Source: Flavobacterium sp. (lineage in GTDB: Bacteria; Bacteroidota; Bacteroidia; Flavobacteriales; Flavobacteriaceae). From it: 64,000 bases of DNA. The translations under genes were made by a program, and so were the position numbers. The notes under the pieces are model-generated. The model saw only the letters and a program-made list of their open reading frames with translations, did no database searches and was not told the origin of the DNA. Shown piece after piece: positions 50,376 through 56,571 of the stretch. Positions within the stretch are counted from its first letter, which is position 1. Every line of letters starts with the position of its first letter. The stretch is from positions 11,419 through 75,418 of the forward strand of contig JAAFGY010000001.1 in the NCBI GenBank assembly GCA_010365135.1, written 5' to 3'.

Positions 50376-50449
50376 TCCTTCTTAGCTCAGTTGGTTAGAG
50401 CATCTGACTGTTAATCAGAGGGTCCTTGGTTCGAGCCCAAGAGAGGGAG
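50376..50449 (+). tRNA. tRNA-Asn(GTT)
   Basis: Acceptor TCCTTCT/AGAGGGA; D arm GCTC/GAGC; anticodon arm TCTGA-CTGTTAA-TCAGA; T arm CTTGG-TTCGAGC-CCAAG; CCA not encoded. Confidence 0.95.
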
Positions 50450-50450
50450 C

Positions 50451-50480
50451 AAAAAGCTAGTCGAAAGACTAGCTTTTTTT
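50451..50480 (+). terminator. Intrinsic terminator after tRNA-Asn
   Basis: GCTAGTC-GAAA-GACTAGC followed by T7. Confidence 0.85.
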
Positions 50481-50564
50481 GTTTAAATTCGGATCTAAAT
50501 CTTTACTTAATTTTTAGAAATACCCGAAAAAAACATTTAAGTTATTACTTTAGTAGCGGTTTTC

Positions 50565-50636
50565 AGCCCCGTAGTTCAACGGATAGAATGGGAGTTTCCT
50601 AAACTTTTGATCCGAGTTCGATTCTCGGCGGGGCTA
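50565..50636 (+). tRNA. tRNA-Arg(CCT)
   Basis: Acceptor AGCCCCG/CGGGGCT; anticodon arm GGAGT-TTCCTAA-ACTTT (two G.U pairs); T arm CCGAG-TTCGATT-CTCGG. Confidence 0.9.
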
Positions 50637-50637
50637 C

Positions 50638-50670
50638 AAAAAAGACTGTCAGAAATGATGGTCTTTTTTT
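50638..50670 (+). terminator. Terminator after tRNA-Arg
   Basis: AAAGACTGTCA-GAAA-TGATGGTCTTT followed by Ts. Confidence 0.65.
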
Positions 50671-50755
50671 GTGTTAAATTGAACAAGCCACAATAGCTAG
50701 TATAAAAAGTTAAAAATAAAACCTTACTTTTATATCAACATTTAATTGAAAATCC

Positions 50756-51871
50756 ATGAAAAAAGTCAACTTATTATTACTCGCTATTATTGTTTTGAGC
50801 TGTCAGGCACAGGTAAAACCTAACGATATTGCTATTCAAGACGAAGTAATCAAATATACTTTTGAAACCGTTGCAGATGGAATTCCTATACCTTGGGGAA
50901 TGGCTTTTTTGCCTGACAATTCGATGCTTGTCACTGAAAAAAGCGGTGTTTTATACCACATAAAAAATGGAGTTAAAACGGAAGTTAAAAATGTTCCTGC
51001 AGTTTATAATCGTGGACAAGGCGGTTTACTCGATATTGTTTTACATCCTGATTATGCCAAAAATGGTTGGATTTACATTAGCTATTCTTCCTCCGAAGGC
51101 GAAGGTCAAGGCGGCAACACTAAACTCATTCGAACAAAATTAGTGGACGGAGGTCTAACACAAATTGAATCCCTTTATAAATGCGAACCGAACACAACAA
51201 AAGGACAGCATTTTGGTTCCCGAATTGTTTTTGACAAGGAGGGTTATTTGTATTTTTCGGCAGGAGAACGAGGCAATCATTTTGTGAATCCACAAGACAT
51301 CACTCGCGATAACGGAAAAATTTACCGCCTCAATGATGATGGCAGTATTCCTAAAGACAATCCTTTTGTAGGACAAGCCAATGCTAAGGAAGCAATCTAT
51401 ACTTACGGAAATCGCAATCCGCAAGGATTAGTATTAAATCCCTATACAGGCGCAATATGGGAACACGAACACGGTCCGCAAGGTGGCGATGAAATCAATA
51501 TTGTCAAAAAAGGCGCTAATTATGGTTGGCCGGTGGTTACATACGGCATCGATTATGACAACACAATTATTAGCAAAGAACAACAAAAATCGGGTATAGA
51601 AGATCCTATTTACTATTGGCTTCCTTCTATCGCGCCAAGCGGAATGCTATTTGTTACAAGCGATAAATATCCAGATTGGAAAGGAAATTTACTCGTAGGT
51701 TCTTTGAAATTTCAATACTTGGAACTGGTAAAATTAGAAGGCAATAAAATCATTGGTAGACAAAAAATTGGCACAGGAATTGGTCGTATGCGTAATGTGG
51801 CTCAAGGTCCCGATGGTTACATCTATTTAGGGGTAGAAGGAAAAGGAATTCTAAAAATTATGCCGAATTAA
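50756..51871 (+). CDS. PQQ-dependent sugar dehydrogenase (glucose/sorbosone, YliI-like), lipoprotein
   Basis: Lipobox LSC; PWGMAFLP, GQGGLLDI, HFGSRIVF, YGNRNPQG, EHGPQGGDEIN, GANYGWP motifs. Confidence 0.9.
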   Translation: MKKVNLLLLAIIVLSCQAQVKPNDIAIQDEVIKYTFETVADGIPIPWGMAFLPDNSMLVTEKSGVLYHIKNGVKTEVKNVPAVYNRGQGGLLDIVLHPDYAKNGWIYISYSSSEGEGQGGNTKLIRTKLVDGGLTQIESLYKCEPNTTKGQHFGSRIVFDKEGYLYFSAGERGNHFVNPQDITRDNGKIYRLNDDGSIPKDNPFVGQANAKEAIYTYGNRNPQGLVLNPYTGAIWEHEHGPQGGDEINIVKKGANYGWPVVTYGIDYDNTIISKEQQKSGIEDPIYYWLPSIAPSGMLFVTSDKYPDWKGNLLVGSLKFQYLELVKLEGNKIIGRQKIGTGIGRMRNVAQGPDGYIYLGVEGKGILKIMPN

Positions 51872-51911
51872 ATTGCCGCAAAGTAGTGCTCAAGAAGTAT
51901 TCAATGGAATA

Positions 51912-51951
51912 ACCGCAAATGCGCAAATTATATTAATTGTGAATTTGCGGT
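51912..51951. repeat. 9-mer inverted array ACCGCAAAT...ATTTGCGGT
   Basis: Perfect 9-bp terminal inverted repeat; CGCAAAT at 51914 and 51923. Confidence 0.6.
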
Positions 51952-51973
51952 AAAAACTAAAAAGATTAAAGTA

Positions 51974-52429
51974 ATGATTACTAAACTATATCTTGGAATT
52001 GCTTTGATGGCTTCCGTTTATTTATATTATTCGGATGCAAGTAGTGCTTCAGAAATAAAGTACCTTTCTATTGCTGAAATCCAACAACAAACTCCTTTGC
52101 AAAAGAGTATAGCAAACGGAAAAGACGTCTATGCTGATTTTTGTGTCCAATGTCATCTGGCTAACGGCAAAGGGGACGGGCTGAATATTCCACCTCTCGA
52201 TGGTTCAGATTGGCTAAAAAAGAAAAGAAGCCAAATCATTCATGTAGTGAAATACGGTCAATCTAGTGAAATTATGGTCAATTCAAAAAAATTCAACAAT
52301 ATAATGCCTGCGCCCGTGGGGTTGAGTAATCAGGAAGTAGCTGATGTGCTGAATTATGTTATGAATTCATGGAGCAATAAAAATAAAAAAATAGTTACAG
52401 CTGACCAAGTCGCTTTGGTAAAACCTTAA
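51974..52429 (+). CDS. Monoheme cytochrome c
   Basis: Signal/TM segment; CVQCH heme motif; PPLDGS; distal Met in IMPAP. Confidence 0.9.
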   Translation: MITKLYLGIALMASVYLYYSDASSASEIKYLSIAEIQQQTPLQKSIANGKDVYADFCVQCHLANGKGDGLNIPPLDGSDWLKKKRSQIIHVVKYGQSSEIMVNSKKFNNIMPAPVGLSNQEVADVLNYVMNSWSNKNKKIVTADQVALVKP

Positions 52430-52444
52430 ACTAGTTTTTCCTTA

Positions 52445-54523
52445 CTAAAAAAGATAGCTCAAGTTGATGCCACCAAAATAATTTCTGGGATTTCCAGGAT
52501 AATAGTAACGAGGTTGTACATTTCCAAAACCTACAGCATTAGGTAAAATACTGGCCGCATAATGGGTGTTGCTAACATTATTGATTCCAGCGTTTAACTC
52601 CGTTTTTAGCCTTTTCAAAATGGTAAAAGCATAGCTTGTTTTAACATCTAAAAGGCTGTAGGCTTGAGTATATTTGGAGTTTTGATCATTCATTGGAATT
52701 TTACCCACTTTTCTAAAAGAAGTATATAGGCTAAAACCACTTTTAGTACTTGCATTAAGCCCAAAATTCGATTGTGATGCGGGAGCTCCCGTGAGTTCGT
52801 TGCCAGAATAATCCTTGCCTACATCTACAAAGTCTTTGAATTTAAAGTGATTCACAGTTCCTGAAATCGTAGCGCTAAGTTGCCATTGCTCCGTTTTTAC
52901 CAACTGATAATTTAACAAATATTCTAAACCAATATGGGAACTTTCACCCGCATTGATTCCTATATATTGATCGTTGGCAGTTCGGTTTGCCACTAATAAA
53001 TTTGTAATTTGACAGCTATATAGCGCTATTTCTGTGTATAATTTATGGTTTAACCAATTTCCTTTGAAACCCAATTCATAGTTCCAGCCTATTTCTGGTT
53101 TTAATTTGGTGTTGATTTGCCCTGTTGGAGTTAAAGTTTCTGCAACAGCTGGTGTCGAAAAACCTTTGCTTATGGAGGTGTAAAAGTTTTTAGCTTTAGC
53201 AATCTGATACGAAAGACCAGCCCTTGGCGACCATACAGACCCAAAAGAATAGGACTGCTTTGGGTTATTACTATTGGGTTCGAAAACATCTTGCAAAGTA
53301 TATTGTGTCGTGTTGAATGCCAAACCTGTTTCGAGATGCAACGCTTTGGTCAATGAGAAATCCATTTGCAAAAAATAATTGCTGTACTTTCTGTTTTGCT
53401 TCATTTTACTGAATTCAGCTCCAGCGATACTTCCTTGATTGGGTTGCGATAGATACCCATTTTTGAATAGCGAAACTCCATATTTTTCAGTAGCTAATTC
53501 CGTTCCTAAACTCCCCTCGAAAGGAATAGATAACAACGTACTTTTATAATTTAAAACCGAACGCAAGCCAATAGTACTTGTTTTTTCATCCAGAATATCA
53601 AAAGGTCTCGCCTCATACGCCTTTTTGTAATTGGAAAAAATACTGCTTACAAAATTCCATTTGTCTGATAGTTTATAACTGTAGCCAATTCCCACCAGCA
53701 ATTTATCATAGGATTCATATCCTTGTGATGCAGCCCAAGTAAATGCGGCCTTCTCCGGATGATTTTCATAATCGGTTTCATTGATAGAACTTGGGATAAA
53801 AGCTTTCAATCTGGTAAAAATTCCAATGAATGATAAGCTTCCGTTCTGCTTTATTTTTTGCTTTCCGTGGAAATTAAATGATTTTCGATCATAAGCGGAA
53901 TTTTGGCGAAAGCCGTCACTTTGTAAATGAGAATAACTCGTATATACATTAGAGTTGGTAGTGGCAAACGCTCCCGAAAGTGTTTGTTTTACAAACCCGA
54001 AACTACCATAAGTGGTGGTTGATTTCCCTTCTAATTGTTGAAAACTAGCTTCTGTTGCCAAGAGATGAATTACTCCGCCAAGACCCGAACCAAAACTGGT
54101 AGAATTTGGTCCTTTGATAATTTCAATACTGCCAATGGATTCTAAATCAACATCTTCAATACTAGATTCCCCCTCAGCGGATGTCAACGGAATATTTTCA
54201 AAGTAAGTTTTTAATCTCGTAGTCCCATATTGAGCACGAGCCCCTATTCCTCTTATCGTAATCCGGTTTGTATTCAAGGTGCCTTGCAGCATAAAAACAC
54301 CAGAGATTTTGTTCAAAACAGCCGTAAGAATGACACCATCTGTTGTATTAAGTTCCTTTCTGTCAATAACCGAAACGGAATAAGCTGCGTTTTGAAGGGA
54401 AGTTTTTATAGGGGAAGTCACTATCTTAATTTCAGAAAGGGAAATAGTATCTTTTTTAACTTGACTAGAAACAAGATATACTGCAAAGAAAATTAGAAAA
54501 AAAGAAATTATATTTTTATGCAA
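52445..54523 (-). CDS. TonB-dependent receptor (YncD/PqqU-like plug)
   Basis: Plug TIRGIGARAQYG...IEIIKGPNSTSFGSGLGGVI; barrel; C-terminal YLF. Confidence 0.88.
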   Translation of the reverse strand: MHKNIISFFLIFFAVYLVSSQVKKDTISLSEIKIVTSPIKTSLQNAAYSVSVIDRKELNTTDGVILTAVLNKISGVFMLQGTLNTNRITIRGIGARAQYGTTRLKTYFENIPLTSAEGESSIEDVDLESIGSIEIIKGPNSTSFGSGLGGVIHLLATEASFQQLEGKSTTTYGSFGFVKQTLSGAFATTNSNVYTSYSHLQSDGFRQNSAYDRKSFNFHGKQKIKQNGSLSFIGIFTRLKAFIPSSINETDYENHPEKAAFTWAASQGYESYDKLLVGIGYSYKLSDKWNFVSSIFSNYKKAYEARPFDILDEKTSTIGLRSVLNYKSTLLSIPFEGSLGTELATEKYGVSLFKNGYLSQPNQGSIAGAEFSKMKQNRKYSNYFLQMDFSLTKALHLETGLAFNTTQYTLQDVFEPNSNNPKQSYSFGSVWSPRAGLSYQIAKAKNFYTSISKGFSTPAVAETLTPTGQINTKLKPEIGWNYELGFKGNWLNHKLYTEIALYSCQITNLLVANRTANDQYIGINAGESSHIGLEYLLNYQLVKTEQWQLSATISGTVNHFKFKDFVDVGKDYSGNELTGAPASQSNFGLNASTKSGFSLYTSFRKVGKIPMNDQNSKYTQAYSLLDVKTSYAFTILKRLKTELNAGINNVSNTHYAASILPNAVGFGNVQPRYYYPGNPRNYFGGINLSYLF

Positions 54524-54667
54524 TTGTTAGGAATTTTAGGTGAATAAATCGTTTATAAAATTAACCTATTCTTTCCTATTCTCAAAAAAATGCTGGGCTA
54601 GTTAACATTTAAACTATTTATTGAATGTGGTTAATGGTCACTCAAAAAAAGGCGTTCGATTAACTTA

Positions 54668-54688
54668 TTCGATTCTCGGCGGGGCTAC
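54668..54688 (+). repeat. Duplicated tRNA-Arg 3' end (att-like)
   Basis: Identical to 50617-50637. Confidence 0.85.
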
Positions 54689-54821
54689 TTGAAAGACTTT
54701 TCAGTGATATAAGGTTTTTTTTCGTATAACGATGAACCTTCCGATTTCTTCAAAGTTATTTTTGATTATATTTGGTTTTAATAAATCCACCAAATTAAAA
54801 ACATTCAAAAAACGCCCCACA

Positions 54822-55351
54822 ATGGAAAATAAAAAACGCTTGTCTGCAGAACTACGTTCGTCAATTCTCATTATATTGAAAGAGCGTTTTGAAAAAAACA
54901 CAAATCGCCACGCCAATCTTGAATGGGATTTGGTGCGAACGAAACTGGAAGCTAACCCTGAGAAACTATGGTCGCTCCACGAAATGGAAAGAACAGGCGG
55001 CGAACCAGATGTTGTACTCCCAATTCGGCCGAAAGTCCTAAAGGCCGCAGAAGCATTTGTTACGACCAAGAAGCATTGGATTCCAGAAAAGAACATAAGC
55101 CCGCAACGAGTGCTATTGAAATGGCATTAGAAATGGGCATTGAACTTTTATCAGAAGAAAACTACCGAGAATTACAACAACTTGGCAATTTCGACTCCAA
55201 AACATCGAGTTGGATAAAAACGCCTCCCGAGATTAGAAAACTTGGTGGTGCTCTTTTTGCCGATTTTCGTTATAACACCGTCTTTGTCTATCATAATGGC
55301 GCAGAATCTTATTATGCTGCAAGAGGGTTTCGAGGATTGTTAAGGGTTTAA
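54822..55351 (+). pseudogene. DUF4256-family protein disrupted by a frameshift, probably with a short deletion
   Basis: MENKK...EMERTGGEPDVV in one frame; SAESPKGRRSICYD...YYAARGFRGLLRV in another; junction near 55010-55030. Confidence 0.78.
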
Positions 55352-55539: not shown

Positions 55540-56571
55540 ATGAAAAATTCTATATTTTCTTTCCTAGTTCAACTTGTTCTGTTTTATTTTATAATGATTA
55601 CTTTCAGTTGCGATAAAGTCAAAGTACTTGATACTCGAACTGAAAAAGACAAGAAAACAACCGTTCCGGCTATTGCTAAACCTGACGAAGCCTCCATTGA
55701 CACTTTAGAGTACAACCGACTGATGCTTCACTTAAGTAACAATGATAGCACGGGAAAATGGCCTGTAAAAACCCCTTATCCATTGCCAGGAGCTCTATTG
55801 CCTTACAACAGAATTATTGCTTTTTATGGGAATCTGTATTCCAAAAGAATGGGGATTTTAGGTGAATTGCCAAAAAAGGAAATGCTGAAAAAACTACAAT
55901 CTGAAGTAACTAAGTGGCAAGAAGCAGATTCTACCATAAAAACAATTCCTGCCTTGCATTATATCGCCATTACAGCACAAGGAGCACCGGGAAAAAGCAA
56001 TTTACATCGGATGCGAATGCCCTTTAAACAAATAGATACCATTGTGAGTTGGGCAAAATCAATTAATGCAATAGTTTTTTTAGATATTCAGGTGGGTCAT
56101 AGTTCAGTAAAAGATGAAGTAGCGACGCTAGAATCCTATCTTAAATTACCAAATATCCATCTAGCTATTGACCCAGAATTTTCATTAAAAAATGGAGAAA
56201 TTCCCGGAACAAAAATTGGCACATTTAAGGCAGATGACATTAATGACGCGATCGACATCTTAGTTAAAATAGTGCGTGAAAATAATCTTCCTCCTAAAAT
56301 TTTGATTGTTCATCGCTTTACACAAGGTATGGTCACCAATTACAAAAAAATAAAAACAGTCCCCGAAGTACAAATAGTTATGGATATGGATGGATTTGGT
56401 TCCAAAGTATTAAAAAAATCTACTTATGTTCGCTATATTCATAAAGAACCGGTAGAATTTACAGGATTTAAATTGTTTTATAAAAATGACAATAAAAACG
56501 GATGGCAAATGTACACCCCTGAGGAGTTATTACAATTGACCCCAAAACCCATTTACATACAATATCAGTGA
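55540..56571 (+). CDS. Uncharacterised lipoprotein, possibly glycoside-hydrolase-like barrel
   Basis: Lipobox TFSC; RIIAFYG, VFLDIQ, LAIDPEF, DMDGFG, GFKLFYK conserved-looking blocks. Confidence 0.65.
   Translation: MKNSIFSFLVQLVLFYFIMITFSCDKVKVLDTRTEKDKKTTVPAIAKPDEASIDTLEYNRLMLHLSNNDSTGKWPVKTPYPLPGALLPYNRIIAFYGNLYSKRMGILGELPKKEMLKKLQSEVTKWQEADSTIKTIPALHYIAITAQGAPGKSNLHRMRMPFKQIDTIVSWAKSINAIVFLDIQVGHSSVKDEVATLESYLKLPNIHLAIDPEFSLKNGEIPGTKIGTFKADDINDAIDILVKIVRENNLPPKILIVHRFTQGMVTNYKKIKTVPEVQIVMDMDGFGSKVLKKSTYVRYIHKEPVEFTGFKLFYKNDNKNGWQMYTPEELLQLTPKPIYIQYQ

Follow-up and report, generated by a model that had tools for sequence, protein, structure and literature searches.

A repeat of a tRNA 3' end is usually read as proof that an integrase mediated integration, and integration into the T loop makes three predictions, namely that some homologous islands encode an integrase, that the cargo always lies 3' of the tRNA, and that element DNA comes right after the tRNA. 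Among the closest described systems are the tyrosine-integrase tRNA islands (Williams 2002, PMC100330; Islander, PMC4383910), including the Riemerella anatipestifer 10K island, which sits in tRNA-Arg (PMC6764341). Horizontal gene transfer hotspots that are free of integrases, and that turn over by homologous recombination at conserved flanks, have also been described (Oliveira et al. 2017, PMC5635113). Here we analysed a 64,000-nucleotide stretch of a Flavobacterium sp. genome (hereafter the window), in which a 21-bp duplication of the tRNA-Arg(CCT) 3' end brackets a 4-kb islet of three genes, encoding a pyrroloquinoline quinone (PQQ)-dependent dehydrogenase of the GSDH family, a small cytochrome c and a TonB-dependent receptor (together, the cassette). 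We favour, with moderate confidence, the reading that the distal 21-mer is what is left of another tRNA-Arg(CCT) copy, derived from recombination at a tRNA-anchored hotspot, and not a working attachment site.

Results

The 21-mer TTCGATTCTCGGCGGGGCTAC occurs at 50617-50637 and at 54668-54688, both on the + strand and with the distal copy 4,051 bp downstream of the proximal one, and no other match with 3 or fewer mismatches exists in the window. These were also the only two copies at up to 2 mismatches when the whole draft genome was scanned (3.64 Mb, 239 contigs, 93% complete). The repeat begins with the T loop's first base and extends one base beyond the discriminator base, which is position 50636, where the Rfam tRNA model ends. 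ARAGORN and the repeat search thus agree with the original prediction that the tRNA-Arg(CCT) 3' end is exactly repeated from the T loop onward. A chance match was rejected since 100 shuffles gave an expectation of 0 matches and the sequence is the exact tRNA 3' end, while the distal 21-mer and its surroundings are 100% identical in two independent Logan assemblies (SRR8820263, SRR8820264), such that there is next to no probability that the repeat is a coincidence or an assembly artefact. An exact-protein look-up for other alleles returned only two contigs, both occupied and identical.

The proximal copy ends an intact tRNA-Arg(CCT) gene (50565..50637, + strand; ARAGORN and Rfam), which is the sole copy in the genome and is 73/73 identical to the tRNA-Arg of four relatives (G279, G172, G395 and G329) and to copy 2 of a fifth (G117). 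It is followed by a functional terminator, T1 (50638..50680, + strand; fold −15.2 kcal/mol, z −4.75). The distal copy, which we read as the vestige, is followed by a terminator-like trailer, T2 (54689..54722, + strand), which we call decayed because its fold is weak (−5.2 kcal/mol, z −0.66) compared to that of T1. The original prediction had noted a loose likeness between the sequences after the two copies. This likeness held against shuffles (anchored alignment, p = 0.0006) but is generic only, as the 3' flank of tRNA-Val aligns to the distal trailer equally well, and a similar downstream terminator was therefore rejected as a sign of a longer duplication.

The cassette was found in 40 of the 401 sampled Flavobacterium species (E ≤ 1e-200), and the ~45 distinct cassette loci that we examined share their neighbourhood, with RseP and tRNA-Asn on the left and with hyp343, a polysaccharide deacetylase and three further genes on the right. 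The position of tRNA-Arg(CCT) within this neighbourhood varied. In six species (F. frigoris PS1, GL94, L069, L071, L072 and G280; loci L069, L071, L072, L073, L077 and L110), an intact gene lies between the receptor and hyp343 in the same orientation, occupying the position where the window holds the 21-mer alone. Two more species have tRNA-Arg after cytochrome c (G073 and G020), giving eight with a right-side tRNA. The gene is on the left, upstream of GSDH, in the window and in G064 and G037, and most other cassette loci have no tRNA-Arg nearby. Both arrangements are combined in G117 (contig C4), where the order is tRNA-Arg, GSDH, cytochrome c, receptor, three genes and tRNA-Arg. The 21-mer is present in both of these tRNA-Arg copies. 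They also share a repeated 3' flank of about 100 nt, and the acceptor stem of copy 1 is mismatched (G7C). Intact syntenic copies (six species) and a relative with two copies (G117), both in favour of a relic, are therefore found within the genus. Further tRNA-Arg relics occur at the locus in G321 (positions about 36-71 of the tRNA) and G329 (positions 1-26), with weaker, left-hand ones in G408 and G065. The G065 locus (L034 8701-10826) holds a lone GSDH gene between two complete tRNA-Asn genes, with the decayed tRNA-Arg-like stretch upstream.

We then compared the site with that of the closest relatives, in which RseP is 93% (G321), about 90% (G279 and GL94), 89% (G329) and 87% (G117) identical to that of the window; the value for typical genus members is about 72%. 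As the original prediction anticipated, the site is empty in some relatives: in G279, G172 and G395, tRNA-Arg is followed by hyp343 after 260-360 nt, and synteny of the cassette with the tRNA is thus not universal in the genus. The window is 95% identical to cassette-free G279 across tRNA-Arg and its terminator (50561-50680). Homology between the two stops at about 50680 and resumes inside hyp343 (55540..56571, + strand; identified by comparison with relatives), which is the first conserved right-flank gene. From about 55760 on, this gene is most similar to G279, and a row of conserved genes lies beyond it. Because of the 95% identity over 50561-50680, foreign DNA starts after the terminator and not in the T loop, which contradicts the proposal of an island that begins at the 21-bp core. 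Similarity between the distal flank and the native G279 flank was not significant (p = 0.12), and sliding identity gave no clear recombination breakpoint in hyp343 and the deacetylase gene.

The other close relatives differ in what adjoins the tRNA. In GL94, the cassette precisely fills the interval from the tRNA-Asn terminator to the tRNA-Arg 5' end, while G321 is without the cassette and has a PepSY-like gene between tRNA-Arg and the decayed 3' relic, the flank of which is orthologous to the native G279 flank (score 95 vs. 17 for shuffles). In G329, the first 26 nt of tRNA-Arg follow the tRNA-Asn terminator and the full gene is elsewhere. The 26-nt remnant adjoins a polysaccharide-utilisation locus (contig C164, L084) and the full tRNA-Arg is located beside right-flank genes, inverted there (contig C382, L128), which indicates a putative rearrangement with its breakpoint inside the tRNA. 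A tRNA-Asn 3' remnant with terminator is present just upstream of tRNA-Arg in G321, G117, G172 and G395, directly preceded by one or two Fic genes in G321 and G117. The G321 locus (L082 3441-8840) has two identical tandem Fic genes between tRNA-Asn and the copy of its 3' end and terminator, followed downstream by tRNA-Arg, the PepSY-like gene and the decayed tRNA-Arg 3' relic, making two small integrase-free islets side by side. Metagenome contig L098 has a single Fic gene where G321 has two. Searches of JGI metagenomes for the junction or flank returned just one G321-like contig and one unrelated contig. In the window, the left edge of the variable region is marked by tRNA-Asn(GTT) (50376..50450, + strand; ARAGORN, Rfam 66.8 bits), which is followed by a strong terminator (50451-50478; terminator scan). 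The stretch from RseP through tRNA-Asn and tRNA-Arg to hyp343 is a predicted gene-turnover hotspot in this Flavobacterium clade.

We infer the order of events that produced the distal 21-mer and the mechanism, which would be host homologous or illegitimate recombination and not an integrase. The cassette would nearly always land in this neighbourhood, next to tRNA-Arg(CCT). As only the tRNA genes stay nearly identical between diverged species, recombination there, using the conserved tRNA gene as homology, could duplicate tRNA-Arg around the cassette, such that one copy would stand on each side. One possible route is import of DNA from a species with the cassette just upstream of tRNA-Arg, and another is recombination between the two arrangement types. 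G117 still shows this two-copy arrangement. As one of the two copies would be redundant, it could decay; the right-hand copy in the window would have lost its upstream region and its first 52 nt, with decay of its terminator, and the left-hand copy with the strong terminator would be the working gene.

A search with nhmmer aligned tRNA positions 27-73 at the distal site with E = 0.26. Several observations weigh against a decayed full-length gene there. Anchored alignment of the tRNA 5' part and upstream region before the distal 21-mer was not significant (p = 0.19), and therefore there is no direct proof of a full gene at this site. The remnant, at 21 bp and starting in the T loop, corresponds in size and sublocation to a 19-bp att core in the tRNA-Asn of G279, and a random deletion end-point would give such a T-loop start only about 1 time in 10. 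A recombination core would more easily account for the 21/21 identity beside a decayed trailer, which would otherwise call for a recent import. In addition, the upstream region of the window's tRNA-Arg (GAAATACC...AAGTTATTACTTTAGT..GTTTTC; 50520..50564, + strand, by sequence comparison) is the same sequence that in G117 and GL94 accompanies the tRNA-Arg on the right-hand side, which would make a one-step history awkward.

Some of these observations would instead be expected of a classical tDNA island, in which a T-loop tyrosine integrase put a circular element into tRNA-Arg(CCT), the two 21-mers are the attL and attR cores, and the integrase was lost or acts in trans, as for a satellite. We consider this account unlikely. 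The layout is canonical, with perfect 21-bp identity from T loop to 3' end, the perfect match stands beside a decayed trailer, and there is no significant 5' trace of a tRNA before the distal copy. The published Riemerella island uses tRNA-Arg (PMC6764341), and in G321, the closest relative, the one-gene islet lies between tRNA-Arg and a displaced 3' fragment with native-type flank after the fragment. The adjacent tRNA-Asn of G279 holds an 18.2-kb integrative element (contig C22, about 19.46-37.66 kb; L083 4461-5907, L127 4658), flanked by an exact 19-bp repeat, CGAGCCCAAGAGAGGGAGC, from the T loop to the tRNA-Asn 3' end. It encodes a Bacteroidetes-type integrase (Arm-DNA-bind_5, SAM_5 and Phage_integrase domains), along with AAA_24, DUF3871 and AAA_25 genes. 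The window's own genome also has tRNA-Cys(GCA) followed by two ~91-bp tandem units outside the window (contig C136, 42678-42990), each unit comprising the last 24 nt of tRNA-Cys, a terminator and a spacer, and beyond them AT-rich DNA with a small helix-turn-helix-like open reading frame up to the contig end. These tandem units look like a genuine att-type array at a putative island boundary.

The search for an integrase was negative throughout the locus and its homologues. The open reading frames between the two 21-mers are GSDH, cytochrome c and the TonB receptor, confirming the earlier observation that no integrase lies there, and PF00589 (Phage_integrase) had no match on the window's contig (C12). 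The three Phage_integrase matches in the genome are all on other contigs. One is XerD; the two others are non-Xer tyrosine recombinases on contigs C149 and C226, which can be counted in favour of integration. No integrase was present at the ~45 homologous cassette loci, in a Pfam scan of the variable inserts of relatives, or 3' of tRNA-Arg in relatives, where the genes found were DUF6544, PepSY-like, DUF2452, VTC/DUF4956, ATP-grasp/transglutaminase and Fic. In IMG/VR, the only match to the 21-mer was in the complete tRNA-Arg of a different organism, located at the edge of a phage-like contig. That tRNA-Arg(CCT) (L131, IMGVR_UViG_3300012889_000156) has the same last 21 bases and borders a phage-like region with a primase-helicase gene, and no integrase was seen in the fetched part of the contig.

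The distribution of arrangements also counts against the classical island. Most species have the cassette upstream of tRNA-Arg or without a tRNA-Arg, which T-loop integration cannot yield, and G117 has two full-length copies with repeated 3' flank. Element DNA would be expected after the regenerated tRNA, where the window instead matches the cassette-free allele. There is no third copy of the core in the genome and therefore no attP, such that the search for an integrase associated with this core, as originally proposed, led neither to a recombinase on the same contig nor to a further core. All three predictions of T-loop integration fail, and the data better fit a tRNA-anchored recombination hotspot. 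The original description of a reduced island is thus borne out in that accessory DNA lies at a tRNA, empty alleles exist and the cargo is exchanged horizontally, but the integrase mechanism is probably wrong.

Exchange of the cassette was assessed by comparing the identity of cargo and flank proteins. RseP is 87-95% identical within the clade, while among the window, GL94 and G117 the GSDH proteins are 77-82% identical and the receptors 61-73%, with cytochrome c at about 54% (window vs. GL94 only). Cassette proteins within the clade are no closer to each other than to those of species with RseP 72% identical. Because cargo divergence disagrees with the flanks, we regard the cassette as exchanged horizontally between Flavobacterium species, and, by these identities, the window, GL94 and G117 as each carrying a cassette allele of its own, with cassette and tRNA arranged in three different ways. 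The nearest relatives of these three lineages are without the cassette. Searches for the cassette on plasmids and phages gave short matches only, to the dehydrogenase or the tRNA. GC content is flat across the islet (~0.36), and a compositional island was rejected on that basis.

These identities bear on whether the locus could have been rearranged internally, without import, by tandem duplication of the cassette and tRNA, deletion of the first cassette copy and decay of the second tRNA. Such a history would account for the left-type and right-type arrangements, which are circular permutations of each other, and for the match between the upstream region of the window's tRNA and those of the right-hand copies in GL94 and G117. 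Tandem duplications do occur at the locus, as seen in the two Fic genes of G321 compared to one in L098 and in the two tRNA-Asn genes around GSDH in G065. Three separate events would be needed, however, one of them a nearly precise deletion, and the divergence of the cassette from those of close relatives points to foreign origin or replacement. In addition, the terminators diverge by about 35% next to a perfect 21-mer, and we judge this history to be quite improbable.

A further possibility, which we put forward as doubtful, is that the cassette is an integrase-free unit that brings its own tRNA-Arg(CCT) as a portable homology arm and is inserted by host recombination with the resident tRNA-Arg. 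Insertion would result in two tRNA copies, and whichever copy decays would determine whether the tRNA is on the left, on the right or gone. If true, such movement would account for the arrangement types across the genus (left-type, right-type, two-copy and relic), and would provide a simple route of cassette mobility that depends on host enzymes only.

Returning to the islet itself, the first cassette gene encodes a PQQ-dependent soluble aldose/sugar dehydrogenase of the GSDH family that is YliI-like (50756..51871, + strand; Pfam PF07995, E = 1.8e-128), with 2g8s and 7cdy as its best solved-structure matches. It is followed by a small c-type cytochrome (51974..52429, + strand; Pfam Cytochrom_C), which adjoins GSDH in most relatives and is the probable electron acceptor of the dehydrogenase. 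The third gene, on the opposite strand (52445..54523, − strand), encodes a PqqU-like TonB-dependent receptor with plug and barrel domains. Its best NCBIfam match was PqqU, at 180 bits and thus below the 1200-bit equivalog cut-off, and its only PDB matches at E ≤ 1e-10 were PqqU/YncD structures (9c4o and 6v81; residues 38-692, full length, E = 3.5e-37), such that the receptor is a probable PQQ importer. Given this bracketed content of a PQQ dehydrogenase, a cytochrome c and a PqqU-like receptor, the 4-kb islet is predicted to be a coherent oxidation module that scavenges PQQ, a vitamin-like cofactor. We did not detect pqqC in the window's genome, which is weak evidence as the control genomes were without pqqC too, and which agrees with the report of Bacteroidota that carry PqqU without PQQ synthesis (Sci Adv 2025, PMC12124388).

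A conserved motif at 54548-54592, TTTATAAA(A/G)TTA...ATTCT...TCAAAAA, lies immediately 5' of the receptor gene. It was found in many species regardless of tRNA arrangement and is probably a receptor promoter or regulatory site. On its right, the distal 21-mer is flanked by TTGAAAGACTTTTCAG... and then by a DUF4256 pseudogene (54822..55351, + strand), in which Pfam matches are split over two frames by a frameshift near 55121-55130. The same frameshift is repeated in the two independent Logan assemblies, and we therefore consider this a real pseudogene. DUF4256 is in a single frame and located elsewhere in the genome in 20 relatives, never adjoining tRNA-Arg, so that the idea of DUF4256 travelling with the tRNA-Arg fragment was rejected. 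None of the ~45 cassette loci examined has DUF4256 at this site, and it is therefore counted in the variable stretch.

Discussion

The feature is an islet at a tRNA hotspot, degraded and lacking an integrase; it is of a known type and ordinary for such hotspots. Its main value lies in showing that a tRNA 3'-end repeat alone is not proof of an integrase, and in describing a PQQ-scavenging cassette that is mobile within Flavobacterium. The same footprint can arise when duplicated tRNA genes turn over at a hotspot, which calls for caution in automated island callers. The adjacent tRNA-Asn hosts genuine integrase elements. The locus also shows a self-contained cofactor-scavenging module that is passed within the genus without mobility genes of its own.

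Compared with known systems, the islet shares with tyrosine-integrase tRNA islands (Williams 2002, PMC100330; Islander, PMC4383910; Riemerella anatipestifer 10K, PMC6764341) an intact tRNA gene accompanied by a direct copy of its 3' fragment, a block of identity from the T loop to the 3' end, accessory cargo and cassette-free alleles in relatives. It differs from them in that the window and the homologous loci are without an integrase, and in that the DNA after the tRNA is native. In addition, the same cargo is found on either side of the tRNA across species, one relative has two full tRNAs, and the islet in the window is just 4 kb with no compositional signal. With integrase-free hotspots (Oliveira et al. 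2017, PMC5635113), it has in common variable content between fixed core genes, a window without mobility genes, a cargo phylogeny that disagrees with that of the flanks, and tRNA genes at the edge. In contrast to those hotspots, the window retains a tRNA duplicate and remnant that point to a crossover inside the tRNA gene, and no breakpoint was located in its flanking genes, hyp343 and the deacetylase. Prochlorococcus tycheposons (bioRxiv 10.1101/2020.12.28.424599), through which islands grow as successive integrations at tRNAs leave partial tRNAs scattered behind, are alike in that partial tRNAs mark old events and that uptake or acquisition cargo lies next to a tRNA, but they carry integrases and replication genes, whereas the PQQ cassette has none. 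The cargo itself resembles the PqqU/YncD import systems and PQQ dehydrogenases (PMC12124388; bioRxiv 10.1101/2022.06.07.495086), as PqqU alone gave a full-length alignment with the receptor. It is set apart from these by a receptor that scores 180 bits against a cut-off of 1200, and by the physical coupling of this receptor, in Flavobacterium, to a YliI-like dehydrogenase and a cytochrome c.

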